Source: a virus (taxonomy: Duplodnaviria; Heunggongvirae; Uroviricota; Caudoviricetes). From it: a stretch of DNA of 64,000 bases. Both the position numbers and the translations under genes were made by a program. The notes beneath the pieces were generated by a model. The model ran no database searches. It saw nothing but the letters and a program-made list of their open reading frames with translations, and was not told where the DNA came from. Numbering within the stretch: the first letter of the stretch is position 1; each line of letters starts with the position of its first letter. Of the stretch, positions 1 through 64,000 are shown piece by piece. The stretch lies in IMG/VR virus record IMGVR_UViG_3300031420_000399. One strand, 5' to 3'.

Positions 1-91
1 TCTTCGGATCCGTCGCCGCTTTGTCGTTGGGACAGCAGTCAGATGTTAGAGTCGATCTAGCCCACGAGGGACAGAAGAGAGCTGAACACGG

Positions 92-556
92 ATGGCCCAA
101 GAGATGAGTCGAACCGAAAGGCTCCTAGCGAGCCGGAAGGAGCGCCGCAGAAAGCGCTGGAGCAGGCTCCAGGGCGTGCTCATCCTTCTTCTTGTGATCG
201 TCCTTCCTACGGCGGTTTTCGGCGTAGTTCCTTGGGCCATGGGCACCTACGACAGCAGCCATCACCACACCATCGAATGCTCTGTCACCAAGGTCTATGC
301 TGAATCGACTTCGACTCGCTCTGGCAGGGGTGTAGGAGCCTCGGGTCGTCAGATAGTCTTCGCCACGAGCGACTGTGGAGGTCACATCCTTCTCACCAAT
401 GGAGTCTACTGGGACAATGTGAAGGAGCTCGCCGCCTCACTGAAGCCAGGTCGCTACGAGTTCACTGTCGGAGACTCCGAGTGGAAACTCGCTCCGATCT
501 ACAAGGTCTTCAGGGTCTCCCCATCGGCCCAGAAGTACAGCTACCTGGGCCTCTGA
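92..556 (+). CDS. hypothetical membrane-anchored protein (basic N-terminus, one TM helix, beta-rich domain; DUF3592-like architecture)
   Basis: 154-aa ORF; hydrophobic helix LILLLVIVLPTAVFGVV after an RKERRRKR stretch; high GC3. Confidence 0.5.
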   Translation: MAQEMSRTERLLASRKERRRKRWSRLQGVLILLLVIVLPTAVFGVVPWAMGTYDSSHHHTIECSVTKVYAESTSTRSGRGVGASGRQIVFATSDCGGHILLTNGVYWDNVKELAASLKPGRYEFTVGDSEWKLAPIYKVFRVSPSAQKYSYLGL

Positions 557-642
557 TCCAACAGCTATGCGGAGCTGAGACCCTTGGCCTGTGGCTTTGG
601 TAACTTTACCAAGGGCCTCGACACGCCGATCTCCTACTCGAG

Positions 643-672
643 TTGCGCCTTTTGCTGATGCTGTGATAGAGT
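643..672 (+). promoter_or_regulatory. promoter (family): TTGCGC-18-tgaTAGAGT
   Basis: drives the sRNA-like unit; no ORF follows. Confidence 0.5.
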
Positions 673-686
673 GTTCTTGCAGGCAC

Positions 687-747
687 CTTGAGGTGGCTAC
701 TTTTATTTGGAAAACGATCGCTGTCTCGCCTTCCCTGCACTTGAACG
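687..747 (+). repeat. 60-nt direct repeat copy A (CCTTGAGGTGGCTACT...GTCTCGCCTTCCCTG), about 80 percent identical to copy B
   Basis: 15-nt identical core CTTGAGGTGGCTACT at 687-701 and 955-969, then similar tails. Confidence 0.6.
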
Positions 748-790
748 CCCCGGACTCAGACCATCGAGTCCGGGGCTTCTCCCATTTTCG
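748..790 (+). terminator. intrinsic terminator: 10-bp stem CCCCGGACTC/GAGTCCGGGG, loop agaccatc, tail cttctcccatttt
   Basis: ends the sRNA-like unit. Confidence 0.55.
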
Positions 791-807
791 GGTAGCTGGG
801 GTCTCTC

Positions 808-884
808 ATCAACCCAGGAGGGTTGATAGCGGCTAAATCAACCCAGGAGCGTTGATAGTCTGAGATCAATCTCCTAGCATTGAT
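808..884 (+). promoter_or_regulatory. three adjacent imperfect palindromes with ATCAA...TTGAT half-sites (candidate operator cluster)
   Basis: ATCAACCCaggagGGTTGATAG (808-829), ATCAACCCaggagCGTTGATAG (838-859), ATCAATctcctagcATTGAT (865-884); 25-100 nt upstream of promoter B. Confidence 0.5.
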
Positions 885-908
885 TCGGCCGTAGTCGGCG
901 ATTCCCCA

Positions 909-938
909 TTGACAGCTGCCTGCATCCCATGTTAGGGT
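909..938 (+). promoter_or_regulatory. promoter: TTGACA-18-tgtTAGGGT for the TerD-domain gene
   Basis: perfect -35; extended -10. Confidence 0.55.
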
Positions 939-954
939 GGATTCTGTCAGGCCC

Positions 955-1013
955 CTTGAGGTGGCTACTCACTCCTTATTGAACCCGCCGTCTCGCCTTT
1001 CCTGACCTTAGCT
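955..1013 (+). repeat. 60-nt direct repeat copy B forming the 5' leader of the TerD-domain gene
   Basis: lies between promoter B (909-938) and ATG 1040. Confidence 0.6.
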
Positions 1014-1039
1014 TTTTACCCGAAGGGAAACACCACCAC

Positions 1040-3184
1040 ATGGCTACCATTTCAGCCGCCCTCCGTCAGTCCGCTCTCCGTCGCGGCATCCTCGTCGAGA
1101 ACTTCTCCGGGAACAGCCCCGCCAGTGAGGTCGTGCGCTACGCCGCCGTCCTCGAGCTCGCCAACCTGGGCTTCCTCGTGCAGCCCGGTGACCTCAACGG
1201 CTTCTCGGCGGGCGCTTTGAGCTCCGCCATCGACAGCGCCCGCAAGATCATCGGCGCCGATCGGGACATGACCCCGATCTACCCGGGCTTCCCGAAGCAG
1301 GTCGAGGAGCTCTCCACGCTGCAGCTCCTCATGGAGCAGATCCTCCACTACTGGACTGCAGGCGCCTTCCTTCCGAACCACCCCGCAGAGGTCCGCGAGG
1401 GGCTGCCGCTGGAGGACATGCTGCGCAGTGGCCGGAAGCTCCAGCTCCTGTCCGCGGATGTCGCCCTGGAGCGACTCCTCAGCGAGCTCGTCAAGGCTCC
1501 CGTTGCGCTCTCCTCGGATGACCGGGAGCTCCTCACCGAGCTCACCAAGGCGGTCTACGGCGAGAACTTCCACCGGACCATCAGTACCTCTGACCTCGTG
1601 CGCAGCTCCACCAACGGTGAGAACATCCAGGTCTTCGCCGAGGCACTCCGGGATCATGCCAGCACGCTTGTCCACAGCCGGGATGACTACTTCTCTGCGC
1701 TGACCTTCGGTGTCCGCAACAGCGATCACCTCCTGCGGCTGATCCTGTCCTTCTACGGCGCTCCCGCAGCAGACCGCTGGGTCGAGAACTACGAGCTCGC
1801 CGTGGGCACTCTGGCCGACCGGCACTTCCGGGCAGTTCGTTTCTCGAGCGTTCCTCGCTACCAGCGTCAGCTCATCGTGGACGCCCTGGGTAAGCTCACC
1901 GAGGGTTACCGGGCCGACCGGCTCGTGACCCGTCAGAACCTCTGGCGCCGCGTCTTCAAGGGCCTCCACCCCTACGACCTGAAGCTCACGGTTGAGTCGA
2001 AGCGGGCTCTGGACATCGTCCACAGCAACATCGACTACCGGACCCTGAACTCGACCATCGAGCAGGCCCTGGAGGACCGGAAGGTCTCCGAGGCCGTAGA
2101 GCTCCTCGCTGAGCACCAGCCGGGTAATCTCCTCCGGCGCCTCGTGGCCATCCTTCGGCTCACCAAGAAGAAGGCAGACGCCAAGGTCCTCGCGAAGCGA
2201 GTTGCTGAGGTCGGCTCCAGGGCTACGCTCTCCACGCTGATCTCCTCCTACAACGGCGTCCTCGGCGCCAACGATGAGCACGCTCGGGTGAACCGGGTTG
2301 CGGGGCTCAACAACACGATGCTCGATCGAGGTGCCGTCGAGAAGATCGACGCGAACTTCCAGGCTGAGGTCCTCGAGGCTCTGGACCAGGCAATCATCGC
2401 TGCCCTCAAGGCAAAGGGAGCTCCTGTTGCGCCCGTAGGTGTCCTGGGAGACGCATCTGTGCCCCTGGTTCGCCGGGATGCTGCGAGCTCGGATCGAATC
2501 CTCGACCGGGGCGCTGAGCTCGGCCTCGTGGGTGAGGGCGATGTGCTCCGGCTCTTCGGCCACTGGAACAACAACATGGACCAGGGAAGCTACATGGACA
2601 TCGGAGCCGTCGTCCTCGACGAGGACTTCAACGAGATCTCCGTGAGCACCTGGAACTCCTGGAACTACGCCCGGAACTGGAGCACCTACTCCGGCGACAA
2701 GCTGGTCTACCCCGGAGACTCGGCAGCTGAGTTCGTGGATGTGAAGATCGAGGCGCTCAAGCAGAACCTCAAGGGTGCTCGCTGGGTAGCCATGACCGTG
2801 CAGTCCTGGGCCGGTTGGCCCATGGCAGATGTGGACTTCATCGCTGGAGCCATGCTCCGGCAGAAGGCCGGCGATCAGAAGGGTGAGGTCTTTGACGCTC
2901 GCTCCGTGACCACCGCCTTCAAGCCCACCACGAAGTCCACGCAGTCCGTGCCCTTCGCCGTGAACCTGGAGACGGGTAAGATCGTCTGGCTCGACTCTTC
3001 CAACGGTTCCACGGGTTCGGGTAACTCTGCCTCCAACGATGGCACTGTCGGCTCCATCGTCTACGACGAGGCTGCCCGGCCGAAGCTCTCCATGGGGCGC
3101 CTCGCCGAGCTCTGGGCCTCCGCCCACGGTGTCGAGACGGTTCAGGAGCCCGTAGACCGAGACGCAATCCTCGGACTTCTGTAG
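1040..3184 (+). CDS. large protein with C-terminal TerD-like domain (N-terminal 500 aa unassigned)
   Basis: 714-aa ORF; C-terminal block (LFGHWNNN, DIGAVVLDEDFNEI, YSGDKLVYPGDSAAEFVDVKIEAL, ARWVAMTVQSW) follows the TerD motif order; promoter 909-938 upstream. Confidence 0.7.
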   Translation: MATISAALRQSALRRGILVENFSGNSPASEVVRYAAVLELANLGFLVQPGDLNGFSAGALSSAIDSARKIIGADRDMTPIYPGFPKQVEELSTLQLLMEQILHYWTAGAFLPNHPAEVREGLPLEDMLRSGRKLQLLSADVALERLLSELVKAPVALSSDDRELLTELTKAVYGENFHRTISTSDLVRSSTNGENIQVFAEALRDHASTLVHSRDDYFSALTFGVRNSDHLLRLILSFYGAPAADRWVENYELAVGTLADRHFRAVRFSSVPRYQRQLIVDALGKLTEGYRADRLVTRQNLWRRVFKGLHPYDLKLTVESKRALDIVHSNIDYRTLNSTIEQALEDRKVSEAVELLAEHQPGNLLRRLVAILRLTKKKADAKVLAKRVAEVGSRATLSTLISSYNGVLGANDEHARVNRVAGLNNTMLDRGAVEKIDANFQAEVLEALDQAIIAALKAKGAPVAPVGVLGDASVPLVRRDAASSDRILDRGAELGLVGEGDVLRLFGHWNNNMDQGSYMDIGAVVLDEDFNEISVSTWNSWNYARNWSTYSGDKLVYPGDSAAEFVDVKIEALKQNLKGARWVAMTVQSWAGWPMADVDFIAGAMLRQKAGDQKGEVFDARSVTTAFKPTTKSTQSVPFAVNLETGKIVWLDSSNGSTGSGNSASNDGTVGSIVYDEAARPKLSMGRLAELWASAHGVETVQEPVDRDAILGLL

Positions 3185-3188
3185 GATC

Positions 3189-3225
3189 AGGCCGGCGGCA
3201 AACTGAAGTCAGCTGCCGCCGGCCT
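3189..3225 (+). terminator. 12-bp perfect hairpin AGGCCGGCGGCA/TGCCGCCGGCCT (no U-tract) after the TerD-domain gene
   Basis: inverted repeat. Confidence 0.4.
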
Positions 3226-3237
3226 CACAGTCCTACC

Positions 3238-3819
3238 ATGGCCATCACCGAAGACCTAGGGAAAGCTACCACTATGACCGTTCGACAGTCACTGCGCTTC
3301 AGCACCGTTCTCGGGGATTGGTCCGACGATGGCCACGGAAAGACTCGTACGGTCGAGGTCGAGGTCTTCACTGATGACGACTCCGTGGAGCTCACAGCTG
3401 ATCTCATCCAGGAGAACTACGCTGCCAACGCTGCCAGGCTCGGCTTCAGCCTCGGTGCGCTATGGGAGGAATACGAGCAGTCCTCGATCTTCGCAGCGCA
3501 TGCTCAGGCAATTCAGCGGGAGCTCGGCGCGCTCTACTATGGGGACAGCTCCCTCATCGCGAAGCACCCAGATGTGGCTATCTTCAACATCGAAGAGCTC
3601 CCCAAGGGTACGAAGTTCGGCTTCGGTGCATTCCATCTTCAAGAAGGGTGGAACGGCGACTTTGCCCTCGACGAGGAGCTCAATCTGGTGCTCTTCATCA
3701 TCCTGCAGGGAATTGCGAGAGTCGGCTGGAAGAAAGTCGATCCTGCGCCTCTCCTCTTTGGCGGTTACAGCGCTCTCGTGGAGCCCCGTCAACATGTGGG
3801 CTACGGGCTGTTCTACTGA
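3238..3819 (+). CDS. hypothetical protein (193 aa)
   Basis: ORF follows the hairpin at 3189-3225; overlapping alternative-frame ORFs are low-complexity. Confidence 0.55.
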   Translation: MAITEDLGKATTMTVRQSLRFSTVLGDWSDDGHGKTRTVEVEVFTDDDSVELTADLIQENYAANAARLGFSLGALWEEYEQSSIFAAHAQAIQRELGALYYGDSSLIAKHPDVAIFNIEELPKGTKFGFGAFHLQEGWNGDFALDEELNLVLFIILQGIARVGWKKVDPAPLLFGGYSALVEPRQHVGYGLFY

Positions 3820-4178
3820 TGGGCATCACAGAAGAGCAGATTGCTGAGGCCGTCAGAGGCCATGTGCACTACAGCTTCCTAGAGATTGCGAGCAACCTTG
3901 CCACCATTCTCACAGGTATAGTCGCGCTTTTCGCACCTCTAGCGCTGATCATCGGATTCGGCGCCCTCATGGTCTACCTGATTTCACCTCAGAGGGGACT
4001 CCTCCCTCTATTCTTCACCACCCTGATCGGCTCAGCACTACTCTACGGTGTGCTCCTCCTCGGAGCCCTCGGCTCCCTGGGGCTCTGGTGCGGCCTTGGA
4101 CTCTTGGCAGCGAGCTACCCGATCCTCAAGCGCATCGCCCGTCGCCGGGCAGAGAGAAGGATCACCGCTTCTGCATGA
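3819..4178 (+). CDS. small membrane protein (about 119 aa, 3 predicted TM helices)
   Basis: ATG overlaps upstream stop (TGATG); hydrophobic segments LATILTGIVALFAPLALIIGFGALMVYLI and SALLYGVLLLGALGSLGLWCGLGLLAA. Confidence 0.5.
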   Translation: MGITEEQIAEAVRGHVHYSFLEIASNLATILTGIVALFAPLALIIGFGALMVYLISPQRGLLPLFFTTLIGSALLYGVLLLGALGSLGLWCGLGLLAASYPILKRIARRRAERRITASA

Positions 4179-4185
4179 GTGGTGG

Positions 4186-4213
4186 TTGCGGATTTCTGGC
4201 TTCCATGTAGGAT
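4186..4213 (+). promoter_or_regulatory. promoter: TTGCGG-16-tgTAGGAT, leaderless ATG 4221
   Basis: 7 nt from -10 to ATG. Confidence 0.6.
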
Positions 4214-4220
4214 CGGATCC

Positions 4221-4619
4221 ATGGAACAGATCGAAGCATTCCTCGAGGGCCTTCTGGGTTCCCTGAGCTCAGTCCCCGGCCTTGAGGCTGCTGGCTCCGT
4301 CGCGCTCTTTCTCACCGCTGCTGTTGCGCTGATTTCCAAGCTGGCTATCTACGCAGTTCCCGTCTACATCTTCGGGAAGATGATGCGCCGGCCGAAGTTC
4401 GAGCCCCGGAAGATCATCACGGTCATCCTGTTAGGAGCTGTCACTCCCGTGGTCTTCGGCTTCCTCGCACAGCTCGGCCCCTACATCAACTTCGGCTTCT
4501 GGTCCGGAGCGCTCGTCGGCACTCCCTGGTACTACTTCTTCTTCCGGCCCCGGCTCATTCGTCGCTACGCTAAGCGCGCTGCTCGCAGTGCCGGCCGTAC
4601 TGTTGCGAAGCTTCGCTGA
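4221..4619 (+). CDS. membrane protein (132 aa)
   Basis: ATG 7 nt after -10 TAGGAT (4208-4213), implying a leaderless start; multiple hydrophobic helices. Confidence 0.55.
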   Translation: MEQIEAFLEGLLGSLSSVPGLEAAGSVALFLTAAVALISKLAIYAVPVYIFGKMMRRPKFEPRKIITVILLGAVTPVVFGFLAQLGPYINFGFWSGALVGTPWYYFFFRPRLIRRYAKRAARSAGRTVAKLR

Positions 4620-4631
4620 TCGGTGTAAGGT
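4603..4631 (+). promoter_or_regulatory. promoter: TTGCGA-17-tgTAAGGT, leaderless ATG 4638
   Basis: -35 lies inside the 3' end of the upstream gene. Confidence 0.55.
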
Positions 4632-4637
4632 CAAACC

Positions 4638-5117
4638 ATGAACAGCTTCCAGTACCCCGCCGCAGTGGCAGGCCGCGCAGAGCTCCTCAAGTTCTCCTAT
4701 GTGGCCCTCGCCATCGGTGCAGCTGAGCTCGCCCCCGAGCTCGCGGCCCTGGAGTCCATCCTCGGCGATGACTACGAAGAGCTGACCCGCAACCGACGGC
4801 TTCGGGACGGTGGCTCCGACTTTCACGCCACCATCGTGCTCCCCAAGGAGTTCAGGACGCTCCGCAAGAGCGCATCTGGTGGTCGCATCGAGATCCCTTC
4901 GAAGGAGCTCGAACTGGAGATCCTCGGCATCGGCACCGCAATTAGCGAGGCGTCCCAGACCTGGTTCGCCATCGCCCGCTCTGAGGCCGTTGTTGCCTAC
5001 CGGAAGCGCCTGGGGCTCCCCTCCCACGATCTCCACATCACCCTGGCCTTCGAGGCCGCAGGCGATGTCCATGGTGTCCCCAAGGATGCCAGCACCCTTC
5101 TGACCACCACCCGCTAG
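4638..5117 (+). CDS. hypothetical protein (159 aa)
   Basis: leaderless ATG 6 nt after tgTAAGGT (4626-4631). Confidence 0.6.
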   Translation: MNSFQYPAAVAGRAELLKFSYVALAIGAAELAPELAALESILGDDYEELTRNRRLRDGGSDFHATIVLPKEFRTLRKSASGGRIEIPSKELELEILGIGTAISEASQTWFAIARSEAVVAYRKRLGLPSHDLHITLAFEAAGDVHGVPKDASTLLTTTR

Positions 5118-5136
5118 TAGAGAGACACCACCTCCC

Positions 5137-5415
5137 ATGGCTGAGAACACCGCAACCACCGAATCCGCTGAGATCGACGCAGCCGTCGAGCTCCGTCCGA
5201 TCACCAAGGAAGCCCGAGAGCGCCTGGAGAAAGGTCTCTACGACTACCTCGGCGAGGAGATCTACACCTGTGGTCGAGTCCATGAGGCCTGGAGCTTTGG
5301 GACCATGGGTCTCGATGACTTCTCTCTGGCCCGGGAGGACGACGATGTGCTCGACAGCCTCGTGGAGGTCGCCCTGGAGGCTCTGGGCTTCGATCCCCAG
5401 TCGGGCCGCGAGTAG
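5137..5415 (+). CDS. hypothetical acidic protein (92 aa)
   Basis: ORF starts 16 nt after the upstream stop; probably co-transcribed. Confidence 0.45.
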   Translation: MAENTATTESAEIDAAVELRPITKEARERLEKGLYDYLGEEIYTCGRVHEAWSFGTMGLDDFSLAREDDDVLDSLVEVALEALGFDPQSGRE

Positions 5416-5466
5416 GAACTTCGACCTTCAGCTCCAGTACCGAGCGCAGCTCTTCCTTCGGAGTGG

Positions 5467-5496
5467 TTGCGCTTTCGTGCTCCATGGATGTAGGAT
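5467..5496 (+). promoter_or_regulatory. promoter: TTGCGC-18-tgTAGGAT, leaderless ATG 5503
   Basis: 6 nt gap. Confidence 0.6.
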
Positions 5497-5502
5497 TCTC
5501 CC

Positions 5503-6213
5503 ATGACCAACAAGCGCATCCGCAGCACAAAGCGAACCATCGACAAGCTCGGCGTTGCCTTCGCCTCGATCATGGTGATCGGCCTCGTTCTCAGTGGCTG
5601 TTCCATGGAGAACGGCGGAGACGCCAAGTCCACTGCCACCACCGATGTCGCGGACTCCCAGTCGGTGCTCAAGAAGCTCGAATCTGCTGACATCATCGAG
5701 GCAAAGAAGGCAGTCTTCAGCTTCGGAGACAAGTGGACGATCACTGCTGACGGCGAGGAGATCGGCGAGATCAAGGGTCAGCCGATTTACTCCATCGGTG
5801 ATACCTACTCCCTGTTCTCTCCGGCCGGTAACCTCGTTGCCAGTGAGGCGGAGGGCTTCCGGGTTGTCAACCACAGCGCGGGGCTTTACGACTACAACAA
5901 CAAGAAGCGCGGTGAGATCCAGGAGCAGTTCTCCATGTTCCTCGCTGAGTACAAGATCAAGGACGCCGAGGACAAGACCGTCGGCACGGCGAAGCAGAAG
6001 TTCAGCCTCACCATGAACTTCGACCTCGAGGGCAAGCATGGGGACGCCGAGTACACGATCTCCAAGGCCGCCTTCTCCATGGGTTCCAAGGTCACCATCG
6101 AGGCCCAGAGCAAGGATCGCTCGGTGGATGCTGTGGATGCACTCTGGCTCGCAGTGATCGCCTCTGAGGTAGAGGACGCCAAGAGCGACGACAGCAACAA
6201 GAAAAACCGCTAG
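5503..6213 (+). CDS. lipoprotein (236 aa)
   Basis: signal peptide ending in lipobox LSGC; leaderless ATG 6 nt after tgTAGGAT (5491-5496). Confidence 0.65.
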   Translation: MTNKRIRSTKRTIDKLGVAFASIMVIGLVLSGCSMENGGDAKSTATTDVADSQSVLKKLESADIIEAKKAVFSFGDKWTITADGEEIGEIKGQPIYSIGDTYSLFSPAGNLVASEAEGFRVVNHSAGLYDYNNKKRGEIQEQFSMFLAEYKIKDAEDKTVGTAKQKFSLTMNFDLEGKHGDAEYTISKAAFSMGSKVTIEAQSKDRSVDAVDALWLAVIASEVEDAKSDDSNKKNR

Positions 6214-6237
6214 CTCGAAGCGACTTCTTCAGTTCGG

Positions 6238-6266
6238 TTGACAGCTCCACACTCTGGGCATAGGAT
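6238..6266 (+). promoter_or_regulatory. promoter: TTGACA-17-TAGGAT, leadered (ATG 6311)
   Basis: consensus hexamers. Confidence 0.55.
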
Positions 6267-6310
6267 CATTCCACACCACATCTTCACCGCAGACTGAAAG
6301 CAGGTTTCCC

Positions 6311-6769
6311 ATGGACATGGACCTCAGCAAGCTCAACCCCGTCGGCTTCACGGACCACGGCAATCCGGACCCGGAGTACCACTTCGACGGGATCCGCCAG
6401 GACCTCCCGGAGTTCCAGGTCGAGACCTCGGAGATCGCCCGGGAGATCGTCGGGCTCTTCGGTCAGGCTGTCGAGAACGGTTCGCCCGTTGCTGTCGCCG
6501 CCGGTCAGGCCTACAGCCGCAACGCCATCCTCTGCGTCAACCCTATCGGCACCACGGCCCGCAACACGGCCTATGGTCGGGCCAACGATGATCTGCTCCT
6601 GCAGGTCACCGTCCGCGTGGACTACCGGGACGCCAAGGGCTTCCTCGACGGCGTCGAGGGTCGCCGGCTCGAGGCTGCCAAGATCCTCGCAGAGCTGGAG
6701 ATCGCGGAGCTCGAGCGCCGGCGTGACGAAGCGACTGCTCGACTCGAGGAGCTCAAGGGTCGGAGCTGA
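6311..6769 (+). CDS. hypothetical protein with C-terminal coiled coil (152 aa)
   Basis: ORF after the TTGACA/TAGGAT promoter (6238-6266); strong terminator 6789-6830 downstream. Confidence 0.6.
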   Translation: MDMDLSKLNPVGFTDHGNPDPEYHFDGIRQDLPEFQVETSEIAREIVGLFGQAVENGSPVAVAAGQAYSRNAILCVNPIGTTARNTAYGRANDDLLLQVTVRVDYRDAKGFLDGVEGRRLEAAKILAELEIAELERRRDEATARLEELKGRS

Positions 6770-6788
6770 GGGCCAACTTCCCCTCTAG

Positions 6789-6830
6789 AAGCAGTGCTTT
6801 CGCAACACGATGCGAAAGCACTGCTTTCCT
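6789..6830 (+). terminator. terminator: 16-bp perfect stem AAGCAGTGCTTTCGCA/TGCGAAAGCACTGCTT, loop acacga
   Basis: after gene 6311-6769. Confidence 0.6.
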
Positions 6831-6861
6831 CATGATGGGCCAAGGAGTGGCCGAAATCACA

Positions 6862-6900
6862 GCCTAGAGATCAACAGCTGTCGACCCTCTAGCCTGCGCG
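6862..6900 (+). repeat. hairpin-family element e1: GCCTAGAG-loop-CTCTAGCC-TGCGCG
   Basis: shares GCTAGAG/CTCTAGC arms, a CAGCTG-containing loop and a TGCGCG flank with 29737-29775 and 51522-51564. Confidence 0.45.
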
Positions 6901-6979
6901 CTCAGCTTCGTCAGCAGCGACTTTCAGGGCCGGTGGATTCCTCCGATTCGGAGGCTCAGCTTCGACCTTAGGAGCTGAG

Positions 6980-7008
6980 TTGCCAAAGCTGCCCTTTGGG
7001 AGTATAGT
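6980..7008 (+). promoter_or_regulatory. promoter: TTGCCA-17-TATAGT (ATG 7047)
   Basis: spacing and hexamers. Confidence 0.5.
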
Positions 7009-7046
7009 TGTCCCCAACACCACTCTCTCCCCCAGAAAGATTCCCC

Positions 7047-7367
7047 ATGGTATTCAATCAGGCTCCGAAGGCTCCTGTCGGCTTCAGTGCTGGAGCTCCA
7101 GCCTTCCGGCCCGGCGTGGTCATCCTCGCAGTGATCTTCGTTTTGCTGCTAGCTGGCGGCATCCTGACGGGGCTTAAGTTCCAGTCCATCAACGCCGAAC
7201 AGGAAGCTCAGCTCAGAGAAGCCCAGAGCGCAGAAACTGCTCAAAAGGCCCAGCAGGACTCTGAGATCATCGGGCTTCGGGACGCCGATCAGAAGCTCGC
7301 AGAAGCCCGGGATAAGAACCGAGACATCGAGCAGCGGCTCACCAACCAGGACGGATTCCTCAAGTGA
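7047..7367 (+). CDS. membrane-anchored coiled-coil protein (106 aa)
   Basis: ATG 7047 in frame with track ORF 7008; the track's TTG start lies inside the -10 TATAGT (7003-7008). Confidence 0.5.
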   Translation: MVFNQAPKAPVGFSAGAPAFRPGVVILAVIFVLLLAGGILTGLKFQSINAEQEAQLREAQSAETAQKAQQDSEIIGLRDADQKLAEARDKNRDIEQRLTNQDGFLK

Positions 7368-8311
7368 ATCGGGGACTGAAGATCACAGCGGCCATCGTTC
7401 TGGCAGCCTCCCTGGGCTTCGGAGCCTACGAAGCCTACTCGGCTCAGCTCGTCGGTGTTCAGCTCTCACAGGTCAAGAAGCGCACCGCTGACAGCGCTGT
7501 TGCCTTCGGCGGCTGGCAGGCCACCGGCAAGGACACCCAGAAGGCCCTCGAGGAAGAAGAGGCCCGAACAAAGTCACTCCAGGATGCATCCACTGCCCGC
7601 TCGGAGTTCGACACCGCGCTCGAATCGGTCAAGGGAGAGCTCAACGCTGCATCTGGTAGGGCTGACATTTCGGCCGAACAGCAGAGGATCATCGCTGCCC
7701 AGAAGCAGGCCATCGATCACTACTCTGACGCGGGTGTGATCCGTGCTCAGGTTGCCGAGCTCAACGCCGTTGCAAGCGAGCTCAAGGCCAAGAGCGGGGG
7801 AGCCGACCGTAAGGCTGCTCCCGCTTCCAGCGTTGTCACAGCTGCAGACAAGCCTTCAGCTCCTATCTCAGCCCCGCGCCAGGTGGCCGCTCCAGCTACC
7901 CCAGCTGCGCCTCCTGCGCCCGTGGATTGGCTGGCCGACATGCGTGCACGGCTCACGGCTGTCGGCGGTGGGTCTGCGCACCTGGAGGAGTTCGATGGCA
8001 ACTGCAGTGGCGTTCGGGCTGTCGCCTGCTCCTTCCCCGGCGGGCTCATCAAGGTGTCCAGTGAGATCTCATCCTGGTCGTCGGCGGCAAAGGATACCGT
8101 CCTGGTCCACGAGCTCGCCCATCAGCAGCAGTTCCCCATCATGGACCAGATCAAGGCGTCGGCCGGCTATCAGTCGCTCTTTCAGAGCAATGTCGAGCTC
8201 CTGGCAAACTGCATGGCCACCGCCAGGGGCTACACCGCCCACGGAGTGAGCTGCTCTCAGCCCCAGGTCGAGTGGGCTCGCTCGATCTGGAACGGCGTGG
8301 TTCCCGGCTGA
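7364..8311 (+). CDS. membrane-anchored Ala/Pro-rich protein with HEXXH zincin-like motif (HELAHQQQ; DUF4157-like)
   Basis: GTG start overlaps upstream stop (GTGA); N-terminal TM helix; C-terminal Cys-containing domain with VLVHELAHQQQ. Confidence 0.5.
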   Translation: MNRGLKITAAIVLAASLGFGAYEAYSAQLVGVQLSQVKKRTADSAVAFGGWQATGKDTQKALEEEEARTKSLQDASTARSEFDTALESVKGELNAASGRADISAEQQRIIAAQKQAIDHYSDAGVIRAQVAELNAVASELKAKSGGADRKAAPASSVVTAADKPSAPISAPRQVAAPATPAAPPAPVDWLADMRARLTAVGGGSAHLEEFDGNCSGVRAVACSFPGGLIKVSSEISSWSSAAKDTVLVHELAHQQQFPIMDQIKASAGYQSLFQSNVELLANCMATARGYTAHGVSCSQPQVEWARSIWNGVVPG

Positions 8312-8362
8312 TCTTCAGCCCTCAGACTTTCTACCCAACCCATTCACAGAAAAGAGAGATCC

Positions 8363-8668
8363 ATGGCTGCATTGGACATCATGGTCAATGAGACCGCAGA
8401 AGACGCTGGAGTTTCACCGGAGGTGGTTCGCTCTGCCCTGGCCAAGGGGATCAGCTTTGTCCCCGAGGGAGTGAAGCTCACCAAGGACAACCTGCGACCT
8501 GCGCTCGATGCAACCCGTGCCCTCGGCGATGCCGTTAGCCCCGAAGAGCACCGAGTCTTGGATACCCTGAGCCGGGAGCTCGACTCCATGGGTCGCCTCA
8601 AGTCCCTCGCTGTCTTCGCTGTCATCAACTCGAGCATCGGCGATCTTCGCGCTCAGCTCAAGGGCTAA
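8363..8668 (+). CDS. hypothetical protein (101 aa)
   Basis: ORF preceded by AG-rich stretch aaagagagatccATG. Confidence 0.5.
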   Translation: MAALDIMVNETAEDAGVSPEVVRSALAKGISFVPEGVKLTKDNLRPALDATRALGDAVSPEEHRVLDTLSRELDSMGRLKSLAVFAVINSSIGDLRAQLKG

Positions 8669-8720
8669 TACCGTTCTACAGCGATAGTCGGACCCAACGA
8701 CTCTCGAAAGGAAGGTCCTC

Positions 8721-9082: not shown

Positions 9083-9096
9083 TCTTCGTGTATGGT
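9068..9096 (+). promoter_or_regulatory. promoter: TTGCAA-17-tgTATGGT for the paralog-array operon (ATG 9106)
   Basis: -35 embedded in hairpin 9047-9082. Confidence 0.55.
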
Positions 9097-55281: not shown

Positions 55282-55345
55282 TCTGGCACTGAAGCTCAGC
55301 TTCTTCTAGAGAGCTCGACCGCTGCGGCGGCCGGGCTCTCTGCCG

Positions 55346-56781: not shown

Positions 56782-57903
56782 TTGAATTTGGAGCTCCTCC
56801 CCTTGGCAGCAAAGAACCTCTCAGTCTACAGCGAGCTCCTGGGCCGCGTAAAGACCGAAGGTCTCCTCACGAAGACACCTTCCTTCTACATCCGATCCTT
56901 CGTCATCATCACTCTCCTCTCCCTGGCAACATGGGCAGGCATCATCCTCCTGGGACTCACTCTCTCGGGGCCGATGGCCCTTCTCATTCTCCCGCTGATC
57001 GTCTTCCAGGGGATACTCACAGCTCAGTACGCATTCATTGCCCACGAGCTCGCTCACAACCAGGTCTTCGAGAGCAACCGGGCCAACACCTGGGTCGGGA
57101 TGGTCATGGCCAATCTCTTCGCGGGGCTCTCCTACGGTTTCTGGCTGCAGAAGCACAATCGCCATCACGGCAAGCCCAACATGATCGACGGCGATCCTGA
57201 CATCAAGCTCAGAGTGCTGGCCTTCTCTACCGAGCAGAAATTTGAGAAGCCTTCGGCTGAGCGCATGCTGACTCGCAATCAGGGCTGGCTTTTCCCGATC
57301 CTCGTGTTCCTGACGAGCTTCGATCTCCTCCTTGACTCCTTCAAGAGCCTCGGCCGAAAGACCGGCCGTGGGGCCGAGCACCGCTTCCTCGAGGGAGCCA
57401 TGCTCGTGGTTCGACTTCTCACTCCCATCGCAGTCTACCTGATCTTCCTGCCCCTCTGGGTCGCACCGATCGCCTGGCTCATCTACATGCTGTCCTTCGG
57501 ATTCTTCCTCGGCACCGCCTTCGCTGTGAATCACATCGGCATGCCTCTGGTCGAGAAGAGCTCTCGGATCGGCTTCCTAGAGCGTCAGATCCTGACTTCC
57601 CGGAACATCACTCCGAGCCCGCTGAAAGATGTGCTCATGGGTGGGCTCAACTACCAGATCGAGCACCACCTCTTCCCATCGATGTCCCGGCCCCAGCTCG
57701 CTCGAGTCAGGCCGATGGTCAAGGAGTTCTGCCGGGAGAAGGGCATCGCCTACCGGGAGATGGATCTTTTCAAGGGCTTCGGTGAGGTCATCGGCTACCT
57801 CAACAGCATCGGCCTCTCTACCAGGCTCGACCCCTTTGTCTGCCCTCTGGTTGCTGAGTTCCGCCAGGGTGGGCTACCCGCGAAGGTGCTCGTTCGCGCC
57901 TGA
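56782..57903 (+). CDS. membrane fatty-acid desaturase family protein (373 aa)
   Basis: three His boxes HELAH, HNRHHGK, QIEHHLFP; multiple TM helices; TTG start. Confidence 0.75.
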   Translation: MNLELLPLAAKNLSVYSELLGRVKTEGLLTKTPSFYIRSFVIITLLSLATWAGIILLGLTLSGPMALLILPLIVFQGILTAQYAFIAHELAHNQVFESNRANTWVGMVMANLFAGLSYGFWLQKHNRHHGKPNMIDGDPDIKLRVLAFSTEQKFEKPSAERMLTRNQGWLFPILVFLTSFDLLLDSFKSLGRKTGRGAEHRFLEGAMLVVRLLTPIAVYLIFLPLWVAPIAWLIYMLSFGFFLGTAFAVNHIGMPLVEKSSRIGFLERQILTSRNITPSPLKDVLMGGLNYQIEHHLFPSMSRPQLARVRPMVKEFCREKGIAYREMDLFKGFGEVIGYLNSIGLSTRLDPFVCPLVAEFRQGGLPAKVLVRA

Positions 57904-59245: not shown

Positions 59246-60610
59246 ATGTGGCATGACCACAGCACGATTCGGTACGACGAACTCGAACCCGCCATGCCAA
59301 CGGTACCTGAATACGGAGACACCATGGAACAGAACGCCATCAGCTACGCTGCAGAGGTCGCCCAGCAGCCCCTTGAAGCTAGGCCTTCAGTGGAAAACGC
59401 CAAGCTGTTCAAGCTGATCTACAACGGCAGCCTGGATGAAGACCTCCTTCAGCGCGCAGTTGAGGATCGACCGATCTCTCAGAAGGCCAAGGACCAGTGG
59501 CACTGCTCTGGGATTCGGAAGCTCCTCAACGGAAGCCTCAACATGGGATCCAAGAACGATCTCGAAAAGGCTACTGCAATCTCAAGGAAGATCTCCCGGT
59601 TTATGATCGAGCAGCCCGAGAGCTTTGCTGCTCTCCCCGCCGCTGACCAGGAGGAGATCCGTAGGCTCCACATCAACACTGGCTCTAGGGAGTGGGTCAA
59701 CGAAGAGGAGCAGCTCCTTGCCCTGAAGATCGAGTCGAGCTCTGAGCTCCTGAGCGAGTTCGGCATGAACTTCAGCTCTACTCCCGCCCAAGAGCTCAAC
59801 CAGAATCTGACCGGCACCGAGATGGTGAACTTCAGCTGGGACAGCTGCGGCCACAGAGACTACCGGGCTGCCTACGCAATCAACACCGCCATCAACAAGA
59901 AGAAGTCGCCCTACTGTAGGGAGTGCTACACGCTCGACAACTCGCTGATCACCTGGTATCAGCTCAACGAAGACTTCCTCCTGAGCTCTCAGGTTGACAT
60001 CTCCCAGGTCTCCTCCGTGGACCTGCTAGCATCCGCCTACAGCAAGACGAAGATCAACATCGGCTATGGCTGCGGCCACAGGGAAAACACTACCTTCCAG
60101 TCCCTCAAGGACAAGGTGAAGCGCGCTCAGGAGCTCGGCCAGGAGACGATCAGCTGCAACGCCTGCAAGGTTCCCGACGGAACATTTGAGGTCGGCATCA
60201 GGATGGCCATTCAGCTCGCAACTGCCTTCGTTCCTGGAGTCACCATCGAGAAGCAGGTTGAGCTCGATGGGCTGAAGGGCAAGCCCTACGACATGCTCAT
60301 CAGGCTAGAGTCTGGTAAGCTCTACTTCATCGAGGTAGATGGAGGACTCCACTACAAGCCGTTCAACAGACTCGGCCAAGATGAATTTGACCGTAAGATC
60401 GAAGTCGATCGGGAGAAGACAGAAGCGATTCTAGCCCTGGGCCACGGTCTCATTCGGATCGACGAGCGCAACCACCGCGGCGAAGTCACTGAAGAGCTTG
60501 CAGCTGTGCTCAGTGCAGCGCTCCGAGGTACTCTGGGAAACTACACAGTGATCGGCGAAGAGTGCCCCGGAGCTCAGCTCGTCTCCGATGAGCGCAAGGG
60601 TTGGGCCTAG
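59246..60610 (+). CDS. Zn-ribbon protein with C-terminal DUF559/Vsr-like (PD-(D/E)XK) nuclease domain
   Basis: two CxxC...CxxC clusters; C-terminal MLIRLESGKLYFIEVDGGLHY...DRKIEVDREKTEAILALGHGLIRI fits the DUF559 pattern; start uncertain (ATG 59246, 59294 or 59324). Confidence 0.55.
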   Translation: MWHDHSTIRYDELEPAMPTVPEYGDTMEQNAISYAAEVAQQPLEARPSVENAKLFKLIYNGSLDEDLLQRAVEDRPISQKAKDQWHCSGIRKLLNGSLNMGSKNDLEKATAISRKISRFMIEQPESFAALPAADQEEIRRLHINTGSREWVNEEEQLLALKIESSSELLSEFGMNFSSTPAQELNQNLTGTEMVNFSWDSCGHRDYRAAYAINTAINKKKSPYCRECYTLDNSLITWYQLNEDFLLSSQVDISQVSSVDLLASAYSKTKINIGYGCGHRENTTFQSLKDKVKRAQELGQETISCNACKVPDGTFEVGIRMAIQLATAFVPGVTIEKQVELDGLKGKPYDMLIRLESGKLYFIEVDGGLHYKPFNRLGQDEFDRKIEVDREKTEAILALGHGLIRIDERNHRGEVTEELAAVLSAALRGTLGNYTVIGEECPGAQLVSDERKGWA

Positions 60611-61026
60611 AGGTCCTCGACCCACTCGATGAGCTTGTCTGCGATTTCGGCTACCTCGTCATCGTCGCTGAGCCCAATGCCCTGATCGCCGACGAGCTCA
60701 TTCCAGTAGTCTTCGTCGGTGGGATCGTAGAAGGCCACGGTTGCTTCGCTCTGGATGAGGAAGGGCCGCCAGCGAGCGAGGAACTGCTTCCGGGTCTGAA
60801 GCCCGTTGGCGTCGAGGATCTGACCGTCCTCGAGCTCAACTGCCATGTGGCACCACCAGTCGGTGTCCCGGCTCTCGACTGCGGCAATGAGCCTGCCAGT
60901 ACCTCGCAGGTGGAGCTCCCTGGCGAGCTTCCAGCAGTCGGAGGAGGTGAAGGTGTCGACCTCGTCCGTGGTGCAGGGCGAGACCTCGAGGAGGAGGTCC
61001 TGGTCGGTGGTGGTGATCCTACGCAT
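60607..61026 (-). CDS. hypothetical protein (139 aa), only minus-strand gene
   Basis: leaderless ATG (plus 61024-61026) 7 nt after a minus-strand tgTACAGT; stop codons overlap the convergent gene at CTAG. Confidence 0.5.
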   Translation of the reverse strand: MRRITTTDQDLLLEVSPCTTDEVDTFTSSDCWKLARELHLRGTGRLIAAVESRDTDWWCHMAVELEDGQILDANGLQTRKQFLARWRPFLIQSEATVAFYDPTDEDYWNELVGDQGIGLSDDDEVAEIADKLIEWVEDL

Positions 61027-61062: not shown

Positions 61063-61078
61063 CTCTTTCTTCAGCCCG

Positions 61079-61107
61079 TTGCGCAGCTGTAGATAGCCGT
61101 GTATGGT
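61079..61107 (+). promoter_or_regulatory. promoter: TTGCGC-17-tgTATGGT, leaderless ATG 61115 (divergent pair, + side)
   Basis: 7 nt gap. Confidence 0.6.
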
Positions 61108-61114
61108 GAGACCT

Positions 61115-61687
61115 ATGTATGATCCCACCAATGAGCAGGCACTGCTGAAGCTCGAGTCCGACATCAACGCCATCTACCAGGTCATCAAGAGCGGTCACGA
61201 CAGCGTGAACGAGGCCTGGGAGACCGCCCTGGCCACAGTTCGCGTGCTCGCAGCTCGCTGGAACCACATCCCTACCCGCAAGGCACTGAACTTCATGGAG
61301 ACCCTAGAGGATCTCATGGAGGAAGAGGAGCTCGATCGGCCCACCGCTCTCCAGAAGCTCGGGGAGGTCCGTGGCGAGCAGTTCGAGCTCCAGGGTGATC
61401 CCACCCTGAAGTTCACCACCATCGAGCACACCGCCAACGGGTCGGTGATCCGGAAGGATATCCTCAGCGCCAGCAAGCCCATCGTTCTGCGCATCGAGGG
61501 CAACAAGGACAGGGAGAAGCTCTACGAGGTCACCATCCGTAGGCAGACCAACCAGCACGGCTACCCAAGCAGCTTCTTCTTGAGCCCGGGACGAAAGCTG
61601 GAGGTCTCCGGCATGGAGAACGGCGAGACCATGCTCATCAACATCGATCCGGAGAGCTACGAGCTCGTCATCGAGCGCACTCGATAG
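61115..61687 (+). CDS. hypothetical protein (190 aa)
   Basis: leaderless ATG 7 nt after tgTATGGT (61102-61107); the track start 61103 lies inside the -10. Confidence 0.55.
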   Translation: MYDPTNEQALLKLESDINAIYQVIKSGHDSVNEAWETALATVRVLAARWNHIPTRKALNFMETLEDLMEEEELDRPTALQKLGEVRGEQFELQGDPTLKFTTIEHTANGSVIRKDILSASKPIVLRIEGNKDREKLYEVTIRRQTNQHGYPSSFFLSPGRKLEVSGMENGETMLINIDPESYELVIERTR

Positions 61688-61721
61688 GGTGAACTCAGTA
61701 CACTCACAGAAGGAACTGTAG

Positions 61722-62282
61722 ATGGAAGAGCAGACAGTACGAGATCGCACCCGGAGTGCGCTCATCGATGGCCTTCGGGCCACCAACCTCGTGGTCGTCC
61801 TGGGAGAGAGCCACATTCCCGGACAGCTCAAGGTCGATGAGCTCATGAGCTACCTCGAGAATGCCGGGGTGCTGGCGGCTGAAGAAGCACCGGAACCTGA
61901 AGGCACCGAGGTCGCCCTGGAGCTCAAGAGGACCTCCTACGCCATGCCTGAGCAGTATGAAGCATTCCTCGATGGCCGGCAGGTCGGTTACCTCCGGCTT
62001 CGCCACGGAACCTTTCGAGCCCACTACCCGGACCACATGGCCCCTCCTGTCTACATCGCTGAGACTATGGGCTCCGCATCCTTCGATGGCCGAGAGCGAG
62101 AGCAGCAGATCCGAGCAGCTCTCGTCGAGATCCTAAAGGCCGATGGGCTGGAGAATCCGATCCCGGGCTTCGACCTCCCCGAGCGTCACGATGAAGAGAT
62201 GATCGAGGAAGTCCGAGTTCTTATGGAGGATACCAGCTCGACTCTCCGAACCCGGCGCTCGAGGACCGGCCGGCACAGCTAA
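61722..62282 (+). CDS. hypothetical protein (186 aa)
   Basis: SD AGAAGGAA. Confidence 0.55.
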   Translation: MEEQTVRDRTRSALIDGLRATNLVVVLGESHIPGQLKVDELMSYLENAGVLAAEEAPEPEGTEVALELKRTSYAMPEQYEAFLDGRQVGYLRLRHGTFRAHYPDHMAPPVYIAETMGSASFDGREREQQIRAALVEILKADGLENPIPGFDLPERHDEEMIEEVRVLMEDTSSTLRTRRSRTGRHS

Positions 62283-62319
62283 GGTTTCAGTGAGATTCCT
62301 CAGAGATCACCCAGAACCT

Positions 62320-62898
62320 ATGGTGGAGCGGGAAAGCTCGTTTGCTTCTGCCGTCGAACAGGCGACTTCCCCTGTGGTAGATGCTGCGGCTTCGACAGCC
62401 CCAGAGGAGAGCACCGAGAGCCAGGCACAGGATGAAACGCCGAAGCCTAGAGGCATCTACTTCGGTCAGCTCCTTGCAGTGACTGGTTTCTGGTCAGGGG
62501 CAGCTCTCCTCCCCTGGCTCTCGGGAAACCCCGAGCCCATGTTCGGAGCTGTGCCAGCTGGGCTCTACGCGACGGTTGCACTCCCTTTCAGCCTCTACTT
62601 CGCTACCGTGGCGAACCCTCAGGTACCGATCACTTCTAGGCCATATGGCCTTGAGCGCATCGACCAGGATGGAAAGAGAACCGTCTACGGCCTCGCGCAA
62701 ATCCACCGAAGGATGACAGCCGAGGAAGAGGAAGCGCTCAGGGCTGGCAACGCAGCTGCTCAGCTCAAGCGACTTGCGAGGTTAGAGCTAGAGAGGTCCC
62801 AGCGGCGAGAGATGAGGGCGCTTCGAAAGCTGGAACGCGCTACCCGAAGAAAGCAGTCGCTCATGGCTAGGCTTTCTGAGCTCGAACAGAGGCGATAG
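62320..62898 (+). CDS. membrane protein with C-terminal coiled coil (192 aa)
   Basis: ATG 62320 (track GTG 62290 also possible); two TM helices then Arg/Glu-rich coiled coil. Confidence 0.5.
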   Translation: MVERESSFASAVEQATSPVVDAAASTAPEESTESQAQDETPKPRGIYFGQLLAVTGFWSGAALLPWLSGNPEPMFGAVPAGLYATVALPFSLYFATVANPQVPITSRPYGLERIDQDGKRTVYGLAQIHRRMTAEEEEALRAGNAAAQLKRLARLELERSQRREMRALRKLERATRRKQSLMARLSELEQRR

Positions 62899-62942
62899 TC
62901 CCAGAGCATCACGAACCGCAGACCTTCCCGGAGGTAGAGCCC

Positions 62943-63515
62943 ATGACTGACCCAGAGATCACCGAAAATAGCTCCTCGGAGCACCTCGAAGATGGAGTGC
63001 CTCCGAGGCCTCACTTCGGTCTCTCCAGGCGTGGTACAGTCGGGCTGATCATCGTCGCTGCACTTCTGGTTGGGGGTGCTGTCGGGCTGGTCAAGTGGAA
63101 CGAGAACCACAATGAGCTCCAGGCTGCACAGCGCTCAGAGGCGCTGGCTCAAGCCTGGAAGAAGGCTCAGCCCAAGAGGGCTCAGGGCGTCGACTTCGAG
63201 CTCAAGATCTCCAGTACCAGCGCTGCAGGCCATCCGGTGCTCGTCTTCGATCACAGTGGCAAGGTCACTGCCAAGGACAGCTGTTTTCAGGCTTCGAGCA
63301 AGTACATGGTCCTCAAGGATGGCAGCCTTGTGATCCGAGATCTCAGTGGAACTGATAGCGGAAATCGGGGAGACTGTGCCGGCAAGAGCATCAGCCCGAT
63401 CTTCCTCAGTAGCAAGGTGAGCTTCCAGGGCAAGGGCTGGACAGCCTACGGTCCAGATGAAAAGGCCCTAGTTGAGAATCTCAAGGAGATAGACTCAAAG
63501 GTGAAGACAGCCTGA
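62943..63515 (+). CDS. membrane-anchored protein, possibly META-like (190 aa)
   Basis: SD GGAGGTAGAG; N-terminal TM helix; two conserved Cys. Confidence 0.5.
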   Translation: MTDPEITENSSSEHLEDGVPPRPHFGLSRRGTVGLIIVAALLVGGAVGLVKWNENHNELQAAQRSEALAQAWKKAQPKRAQGVDFELKISSTSAAGHPVLVFDHSGKVTAKDSCFQASSKYMVLKDGSLVIRDLSGTDSGNRGDCAGKSISPIFLSSKVSFQGKGWTAYGPDEKALVENLKEIDSKVKTA

Positions 63516-63588
63516 GTCCAGGAGGTTTCAGCCCGACGGCTTCGGTAGGATGAACCCTGACAGACACTTAGCATTCGAGCACCGGGAG

Positions 63589-64000
63589 ATGGCCGTGGCA
63601 AAAGAGTACGGCGAGCGCATCGAGGTAGAATCCGAGCCTCTGAGCTCCAAGAGCCTCGGGAGCTTCGACTCAAGCGACTCCGAGGGCAACCTAGAGATCG
63701 TAACAGTCGAGGAACAGGTCTTTAGGACCAGCCTCCAGGGGACCAGCGCAGTGGGCTACAAGTTCAGCAGGGAACGGGTCGGCAAGCTCAAGAGCTCCAG
63801 CGCTCTGCGGCTGTTCAACAACTTCTTCTCCTTCCTCATCTGTGGCTTCGCCATCTACCTACTCCTCAACCCCAAGGTTGACCTGGGTCTGCCCAACATC
63901 GTCTACAGCCTTTCTGCCTTCGGCGTCTTCCTCTTCCTAACCTCCATCGAGAACAGGAAGCTCAGGAAGATCCTACTCCTCAAGAACAGCCACAAGGCAA
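63589..64000 (+). CDS. partial CDS (runs off window end), membrane protein
   Basis: ATG after TAGCAT (63569-63574); open frame to window end with hydrophobic segments; not in ORF track because there is no stop. Confidence 0.35.
   Translation, partial: MAVAKEYGERIEVESEPLSSKSLGSFDSSDSEGNLEIVTVEEQVFRTSLQGTSAVGYKFSRERVGKLKSSSALRLFNNFFSFLICGFAIYLLLNPKVDLGLPNIVYSLSAFGVFLFLTSIENRKLRKILLLKNSHKA

Follow-up and report, generated by a model that had tools for sequence, protein, structure and literature searches.

Gene architecture of the window

The DNA described here is a 64-kb stretch of metagenomic sequence (64,000 nucleotides, referred to throughout as the window) that is filled by a single array of short genes read in one direction. 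From its sequence features the window is interpreted, with a probability of about 0.7, as an accessory arm of a huge actinobacterial phage that would belong to an undescribed lineage and be transcribed by the host polymerase. The gene map was obtained by merging codon-usage calls with the Prodigal calls stored for window-identical contigs, which differ from it by 0–1 mismatches. It contains 94 genes, 93 on the + strand and one on the − strand, with two strand switches among them; a codon-usage model with optimal tiling gives 98 open reading frames, 97 on + and one on −. The strong bias reported in the initial annotation, about 95 genes against one, is therefore borne out by the merged calls.

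1–64000, + strand: array of 93 short genes in one direction and a single gene in the other

In identical contigs the array runs on for at least 9 kb upstream and at least 9.5 kb downstream of the window. The window and its flanks of approximately 10 kb together span about 84 kb and hold 123 genes, 120 of which lie on one strand. Within the window the coding density is 0.87, the intergenic share 12.9% and the median protein length 155 amino acids (aa). Neighbouring genes overlap at 21 of the 93 junctions (23%), ten of them by 4 nucleotides (nt), six by 1 nt and the rest by other lengths that include 8–13 nt, and gaps of 1–7 nt are found at seven further junctions. The packing is tight, as first described, although to call overlaps of 1–8 nt ‘pervasive’ overstated their frequency. 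A transmembrane-like segment is present in 30 of the 94 proteins and eight tandem paralogue families account for 21 genes, in agreement with the earlier description of the content as rich in membrane and paralogous proteins. The GC content is uniform at approximately 0.60, apart from one lower-GC island at 16–22 kb.

No tRNA, Rfam family or tandem repeat was found in the window. Searches of the 123 proteins against Pfam, PHROG and NCBIfam matched 29 Pfam and 28 PHROG families and left about 75% of the genes without a family match. No virion, packaging, replication, translation, conjugation or transposition family was among the hits, and family searches of the 84 kb likewise gave no partition, toxin–antitoxin, insertion sequence, transposase, integrase, relaxase or type IV secretion gene. 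Housekeeping, rRNA and central-metabolism genes are also missing from the 123. The initial annotation had noted the lack of tRNA, translation and replication genes, and of any capsid, portal, terminase or conjugation gene; both statements hold. Short genes, long same-strand runs, few family matches and no cellular core genes, the traits by which a viral-type architecture was judged, are all found here.

Promoters, leaderless starts and hairpins

The intergenic DNA of the window is enriched in a small set of words that include GTTGCG, TAGGAT and TATGGT. The motif TTGNNN-N16-19-TANNNT occurs at 40 sites on the + strand, 33 of them intergenic, where shuffled intergenic DNA gives 3.7 ± 1.8 (maximum 9 in 500 shuffles). 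A stricter form of the motif is found 28 times on the + strand and twice on the − strand, and 26 of the 28 sites are intergenic. The resulting consensus, TTGCGC/TTGACA-N17-(TG)TAGGAT/TATGGT, often with the extended TG, confirms the uniform promoter sequence proposed in the initial annotation and agrees with the primary-sigma consensus of Streptomyces and mycobacteria. Promoters of the SigA/HrdB type were defined by a TTGAC(A/G)-like −35 box and a TA(G)NNT −10 box lying 17–18 nt apart, upstream of genes and on the coding strand. Pattern, enrichment, strand bias and conservation all argue for promoters of this type in the window. The strand bias of the strict motif recurs in relatives of the element (12:0, 7:0, 9:0 and 7:0), which are described below.

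In 11 promoters the −10 hexamer ends 6–7 nt ahead of the start codon, which implies that the mRNAs are leaderless. Leaderless mRNAs are common in Actinobacteria. The counts for this geometry in the window and relatives are 11, 9, 6 and 5. The predicted sites in the window are as follows.

4186–4213, + strand: leaderless-type promoter
5467–5496, + strand: leaderless-type promoter
22696–22725, + strand: leaderless-type promoter
26548–26576, + strand: leaderless-type promoter
29857–29885, + strand: leaderless-type promoter
32672–32701, + strand: leaderless-type promoter
33042–33070, + strand: leaderless-type promoter
37177–37205, + strand: leaderless-type promoter
40939–40967, + strand: leaderless-type promoter
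51645–51673, + strand: leaderless-type promoter
61079–61107, + strand: leaderless-type promoter

Approximately 12 long hairpins with stems of 11–18 bp are positioned 15–25 nt past stop codons, and perfect stems of at least 13 bp are confined to intergenic DNA. Most of the long hairpins have no clear T-tract. A generic scan of the window for a stem followed by a T-tail did not rise above chance level, and the folding energy of whole segments gave no discrimination at this GC content. Of the ‘many strong terminators’ of the initial annotation, about a dozen post-stop hairpins can be retained as candidates.

9047–9082, + strand: terminator-like hairpin with a 16-bp stem, 17 nt past the stop codon, its 3′ arm holding the next −35 box
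747–776, + strand: terminator-like hairpin
3190–3224, + strand: terminator-like hairpin
6788–6827, + strand: terminator-like hairpin
16179–16217, + strand: terminator-like hairpin
18261–18306, + strand: terminator-like hairpin
19520–19571, + strand: terminator-like hairpin
24364–24397, + strand: terminator-like hairpin
32584–32617, + strand: terminator-like hairpin
33020–33056, + strand: terminator-like hairpin
34302–34339, + strand: terminator-like hairpin
55308–55341, + strand: terminator-like hairpin

Compact terminator–promoter units, in which the 3′ arm of a hairpin doubles as the −35 box of the next gene, are seen at 9047–9095, 32584–32640 and 33020–33070.

Gene content of the array

The products that could be assigned to a family, or that belong to a tandem group, are distributed along the whole window.

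1040–3184, + strand: 714-aa protein (phrog_33734), encoded by the best-conserved gene of the lineage
4638–5117, + strand: 2H phosphoesterase of the ‘Swiss Army Knife’ RNA-repair type (PF22547)
9979–11541, + strand: four tandem paralogues of 106–148 aa, joined by 4-nt overlaps
14519–15877, + strand: 452-aa secreted or anchored protein with a Gly/Ser-rich linker and BNR/sortilin-like β-propeller repeats (weak Pfam match)
17090–22142, + strand: four tandem paralogues of approximately 370–400 aa, each with an N-terminal hydrophobic segment, in the lower-GC island
23189–24340, + strand: 383-aa protein with a SAP/Rho_N-like DNA/RNA-binding motif
29892–31397, + strand: TPM-domain membrane protein
31511–32563, + strand: Band 7/SPFH protein, following the TPM gene
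38592–39539, + strand: DUF808 integral membrane protein (Pfam E = 2e-103)
44549–45904, + strand: AAA+ ATPase of 451 aa
45953–47059, + strand: cation-diffusion-facilitator (CDF) transporter, following the AAA+ ATPase
49138–49638, + strand: DUF7695 Cys/His-rich protein
50908–52989, + strand: three adjacent genes for a 174-aa protein (C-terminal phrog_5848), a SprT-like metalloprotease and a HAD_SAK_2 phosphatase
56803–57903, + strand: fatty-acid desaturase, 38% identical to that of Microbacterium phage Min1
57983–58315, + strand: MazG-type pyrophosphohydrolase, following the desaturase
59246–60610, + strand: 454-aa protein with an HNH-endonuclease-type region (phrog_559)
60607–61026, − strand: sole minus-strand gene, 139 aa, convergent with the HNH gene and overlapping it by 4 nt

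META, PGPGW and DUF4241 proteins were also recognized in the window. In the flanks, an RNase_T/KapD-type exonuclease is encoded 8 kb upstream of the window, and NAPRTase and a second HNH protein (HNH_5) 7–9 kb downstream. Several of the families occur in known phages. The phrog_5848 domain is found in Vibrio ICP1 and in Bacillus, Aeromonas and Pseudomonas phages, the SprT-like metalloprotease in T4-like Klebsiella phages, and the DUF7695 protein has a weak match in the 636-kb uncultured huge phage LR756504.

The lower-GC island (16000–22200, GC 0.535–0.57) contains the four larger paralogues, which carry a Gly/Thr/Pro-rich linker and match nothing in Pfam or PHROG; they may be diversifying surface or secreted proteins. 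Near the other end of the window, the HNH gene and the convergent minus-strand gene (59246–61026) could together have arisen by insertion or as a mobile cassette for a homing endonuclease. Two otherwise different proteins, of 457 aa (47585–48958) and 265 aa (53034–53831), share an N-terminal module of 79 aa at 54% identity, with GYNPYRKANGEFAS, and the common module suggests domain shuffling within the array.

The initial annotation had also listed an Lsr2-like gene, which could not be confirmed here; the candidate for it is the gene at 54724–55281 (+ strand; protein 54724–55278). A profile search would recognize Lsr2 (PF11774) by its N-terminal dimerisation domain and its AT-hook-like DNA-binding domain at the C-terminus. 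The likeness of the candidate was seen by eye, at the N-terminus only, and every sequence test was negative: there is no Pfam hit of any kind at E ≤ 0.1, a PDB search finds no Lsr2, and Lsr2 queries give E = 1.5 by BLAST and E > 0.2 by phmmer and hmmsearch on all six frames. A single-sequence AlphaFold model of the product was unusable (pLDDT 34).

Relatives and the nature of the element

Stretches identical to the window are found in JGI 3300031417 as well as in assemblies from ENA and Logan. A contig of 193,406 bp carries exact window proteins, and one of 307,498 bp the adjoining downstream NAPRTase. With RNase_T as a probe (its cluster representative lies on a 1.5-kb contig), relatives were found on contigs of 346,375 bp (JGI Ga0308169_10000040), 475,499/475,513 bp (ENA ERZ27247443 k141_1824480, 475.5 kb) and 673,773 bp (Ga0308157_10000029) and on several shorter ones. 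Approximately 20 kb of each relative was sampled, at positions such as 51–72, 105–126 and 147–167 kb from the contig ends. The relatives are collinear around RNase_T and have the same one-strand small-gene architecture, to which every sampled 20 kb belongs entirely. Protein identity to the window element ranges from 40 to 96% in the 346-kb contig and from 32 to 79% in the 674-kb contig.

Upstream of RNase_T, the 475-kb relative and a related contig encode a UDP-galactopyranose mutase, a ParB-like nuclease and a T4-type glucosyltransferase, together with an M23/SH3 lysin-like protein and a 1113-aa protein with weak tail-fibre similarity. The first three form a conserved trio beside RNase_T (878–8873 of the locus L011 in the 475-kb relative, 4906–8805 of L085) and may represent a module that glycosylates DNA or virions. 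The small-gene array of the 346-kb relative is directly preceded by the C-terminus of an Ig-repeat protein with Hoc-like PHROG hits (L021, 1–822), which may mark the edge of a structural module. A weak SAM-lyase match is also among the phage-type content. The look-ups of RNase_T relatives otherwise returned small genes or genes of nucleotide metabolism, with no hallmark genes.

The most conserved gene of the lineage, which encodes the 714-aa protein, is 54–55% identical at the protein level in the 475- and 674-kb relatives. It is preceded by a promoter and a leader.

909–1039, + strand: promoter TTGACA-N18-TAGGGT and leader of approximately 100 nt of the 714-aa gene

The −35 box, −10 box and leader are conserved in the 674-kb relative, and the spacer has diverged. 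The leader is about 85% identical to that of the relative (L025, 19690–19806), compared with 55% for the protein, and is thus the better conserved of the two. It folds no better than shuffled sequence (z = −1.2), and might act as a regulatory RNA or bind a protein.

The best known homologue of the 714-aa protein is in Mycobacterium phage WXIN (Omegavirus), with 45% identity over the full length. The homologues in Rhodococcus phage Weasels2 (29% identity) and in some jumbo phages are weaker. Relatives of the protein are annotated as MXAN_6230/SCO0854 RING-domain or TerD-family proteins, the TerD family being found in Bacillus and Clostridium plasmids and the SCO0854 RING-domain family in Streptomyces. 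The C-terminal part of the window protein appears TerD-like by eye; Pfam gives no match for it. A search of 185,579 GTDB species genomes yielded no close relative of the gene. The protein was considered as a phage-specific marker and dropped once a homologue with 39% identity was found on the Mycolicibacterium plasmid pTY66_01, and plasmid homologues mean that it cannot serve as a viral marker.

The surroundings of the homologues are more informative than the protein itself. WXIN (cluster J, 115 kb) infects an actinobacterial host and has a one-strand run of very short genes of approximately 55 kb. In addition to the 700-aa homologue, this arm carries NAPRTase, MazG, RNA-repair enzymes and HNH endonucleases. 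The two elements are nevertheless distinct: WXIN shares detectably one of the 123 proteins (E < 1e-4), the strict promoter motif has no site in 35 kb sampled of the WXIN arm, and the window element appears several times larger. Close kinship with Omegavirus and cluster J was rejected, as there is no megablast match and a single protein of the 123 matches WXIN. Similarly, Weasels2 (135 kb) holds its homologue in a one-strand array of small genes that also includes an HNH endonuclease and an RNA ligase; it differs in its GC content of 0.40, in the many tRNAs of the array and in showing no other gene match in the 13.8 kb read.

The plasmid pTY66_01 (Mycolicibacterium sp. TY66, 267 kb) resembles the window in its homologue and in a content of mostly hypothetical genes. 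However, the 47 genes around its homologue switch strand 17 times, compared with twice among the 94 genes of the window, and include RES-Xre, HipA, PIN and Phd toxin–antitoxin genes, an IS607 TnpB and a type VII secretion substrate, none of which occurs in the window. Of the two neighbourhoods, the mixed one of the plasmid and the one-strand series of small genes in WXIN, the window is like the latter. The families phrog_5848 and SprT also turn up far more often among phage than among plasmid records. In collection searches their regions match 230 phage records, whereas a seven-protein query that includes them matched, apart from the 714-aa region, at most 15 plasmid records, the plasmid collection being three times the size of the phage collection.

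In T4, T5 and other large lytic phages the early regions contain many small non-essential genes, interspersed with free-standing homing endonucleases and read in one direction from strong host-consensus promoters by the unmodified host RNA polymerase. The array differs from these in its actinobacterial consensus, in that a third of its promoters are leaderless and in its length of more than 82 kb; its early timing is a prediction. Huge phages of more than 200 kb that were assembled from metagenomes (Al-Shayeb et al. 2020, PMC7162821; comparative review PMC7824862) provide a second comparison. As here, they lie on very long contigs with mostly unknown genes and encode NAD salvage, RNA repair and nucleotide detoxification, and DNA modification, which is found here in the relatives. 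NAD salvage, RNA repair, DNA modification and TerD-type proteins have been reviewed as typical jumbo-phage adaptations, and TerD has been recorded in actinobacterial jumbo phages (PMC7824862). The present element is unlike huge phages in its probable high-GC actinobacterial host, the lack of tRNAs in the stretch and the fact that hallmark genes were not seen.

Taken with these comparisons, the conclusion of the initial annotation, that the window derives from a large virus or mobile element rather than a chromosome, is upheld: 120 of the 123 genes share one strand, housekeeping genes are missing and the relatives have the same organization. The flanks, which the initial annotation had singled out for a check, contain no chromosomal housekeeping gene within 10 kb on either side. 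As evidence against an ordinary chromosome the organization is strong, and against a plasmid it is moderate. No gene for virion structure or packaging lies in the sequence read, so that the type of element can only be inferred, its viral nature being deduced from architecture and gene types. The promoter consensus, the leaderless starts and the GC content of about 60% point to an actinobacterial host; homologues occur in Mycobacterium, Rhodococcus and Microbacterium phages, and the closest RNase_T from a named cellular organism, Leifsonia, is 58% identical.

As an accessory arm of a very large double-stranded DNA phage from soil-type metagenomes, the array would contain non-structural, probably early or host-takeover, genes. 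It would be divided into many small transcription units set by SigA-type promoters, with the hairpins acting as terminators between them, and host RNA polymerase carrying the primary sigma factor could read it unaided by a phage factor. The leaderless and short-leader mRNAs would be well translated by an actinobacterial host. The products, mostly small lineage-specific proteins of which a third are membrane or secreted and several are tandemly expanded, may remodel the cell and its envelope. Host defences might be countered by the 2H and HAD RNA-repair domains, MazG, the SprT-like protease, the AAA+ ATPase and NAD salvage through NAPRTase, and membrane physiology adjusted by the desaturase, Band 7 protein, CDF transporter and DUF808 protein. 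The genes for virion structure, packaging and replication would be found in other parts of a genome of probably several hundred kilobases. More specifically, and with somewhat less than an even chance of being right, the contigs may define a family of actinobacterial megaphages that is new to the literature, with genomes of approximately 350–670 kb and an arm of at least 90 kb, holding about 140 fast-diverging genes behind host SigA-type promoters, many of them leaderless.

Several observations weigh against a phage. Capsid, portal, terminase, tail and phage replication genes are lacking from the window, its 10-kb flanks and the 20-kb samples of five relatives. Exact 40-mers of the window have no match in IMG/VR, which also contains no close relative. 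The CDF transporter, DUF808, Band 7 and desaturase genes are of ordinary cellular types, and the 714-aa protein is not phage-specific, having homologues on actinobacterial megaplasmids and Streptomyces replicons. The contigs of 346–674 kb need not belong to the element throughout, and a genome of more than 200 kb is what we infer from them. Finally, the timing of expression, the use of the host polymerase and leaderless initiation are all deduced from the DNA sequence alone.

Of the alternatives to a phage, the strongest, although unlikely, is a giant non-viral extrachromosomal element, either a megaplasmid or an element of a new kind, with plasmid-type replication and a cargo of accessory membrane and stress genes. 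The lack of a virion gene, the absence of the sequence from IMG/VR, the transporters and membrane proteins of cellular type, the very long contigs of the relatives and the 714-aa homologues on Mycolicibacterium (266–278 kb) and Streptomyces plasmids would all suit such an element. A megaplasmid would be recognized by a replication initiator, partition genes and a relaxase or type IV secretion system, but about 84 kb contain none of these and no toxin–antitoxin, insertion sequence or integrase gene either. The mixed neighbourhood in pTY66_01 is unlike the window, and the HNH endonucleases, T4-type glucosyltransferase, lysin and Ig-domain protein of the lineage, as well as the distribution of phrog_5848 and SprT, favour a phage. 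A Borg-like archaeal element, recognized by pervasive perfect tandem direct repeats, low GC content and archaeal gene signals, was rejected, as the window has no such repeats, a GC content of 0.60 and bacterial sigma-70-type promoters. The contigs might still represent a new kind of giant non-viral element with a phage-like gene architecture.

Less probable again is an island within the chromosome of an actinobacterium, for example a degenerate giant prophage or another integrated element, in which case the long contigs would be mostly host chromosome. The sequence read covers approximately 84 kb of the element and 20 kb per relative, contigs of 346–674 kb could be pieces of a chromosome, and the promoters are those of a host. 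Against this, the 10 kb next to either end contain no attachment site, tRNA, integrase or host gene, all the 20-kb samples of the relatives are of the same small-gene type, the GTDB species genomes lack a close relative of the 714-aa gene, and several sequence variants co-exist in one sample series. An ordinary bacterial chromosome with unusually biased gene orientation is very improbable: its typically actinobacterial GC content, host-type promoters and few genes with cellular homologues have to be set against the lack of any housekeeping gene among the 123, approximately 75% of genes without a family match, a median protein of 155 aa, the lack of any tRNA or other RNA gene, and orthologues that diverge to 32–96% identity in a preserved gene order.

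Should the complete contigs turn out to be phage genomes, the lineage would consist of very large viruses that infect soil Actinobacteria, a phylum that matters for antibiotics and disease. The matched actinophage genomes are of 115–135 kb, far below the contigs that bear this lineage. About 100 unknown genes with promoters that a host could read would provide candidate host-takeover, envelope-remodelling and anti-defence proteins, and the long array with its clean promoter consensus and many leaderless starts is a data set for actinobacterial transcription and leaderless translation. The result is solid rather than startling, and would become notable should the 350–670-kb contigs prove to be complete phage genomes. 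Neither the phage collection nor IMG/VR has any record with DNA-level or multi-gene protein-level similarity, and a megablast search of 50 kb of the window against GenBank phages returned only a 45-nt desaturase motif. That the sequence is absent from IMG/VR suggests that contigs or fragments dominated by such accessory arms may escape the usual virus-detection pipelines.

Independent MEGAHIT and JGI assemblies break at the same places, approximately 45091–45231 and 61066–61206, with overlaps of 141 nt that correspond to the k-mer size. Close to these breaks, the genes for the AAA+ ATPase and the desaturase are present in several near-identical variants, a sign that strains co-exist in the samples. 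A more distant RNase_T relative with 60% identity is encoded on a 124-kb contig (L013, SHEN23 scaffold_20) with genes on both strands, where its neighbours are two N6/N4 DNA methyltransferases, a 933-aa ResIII helicase and sugar-modifying enzymes; this contig appears to belong to a different large phage-like element.

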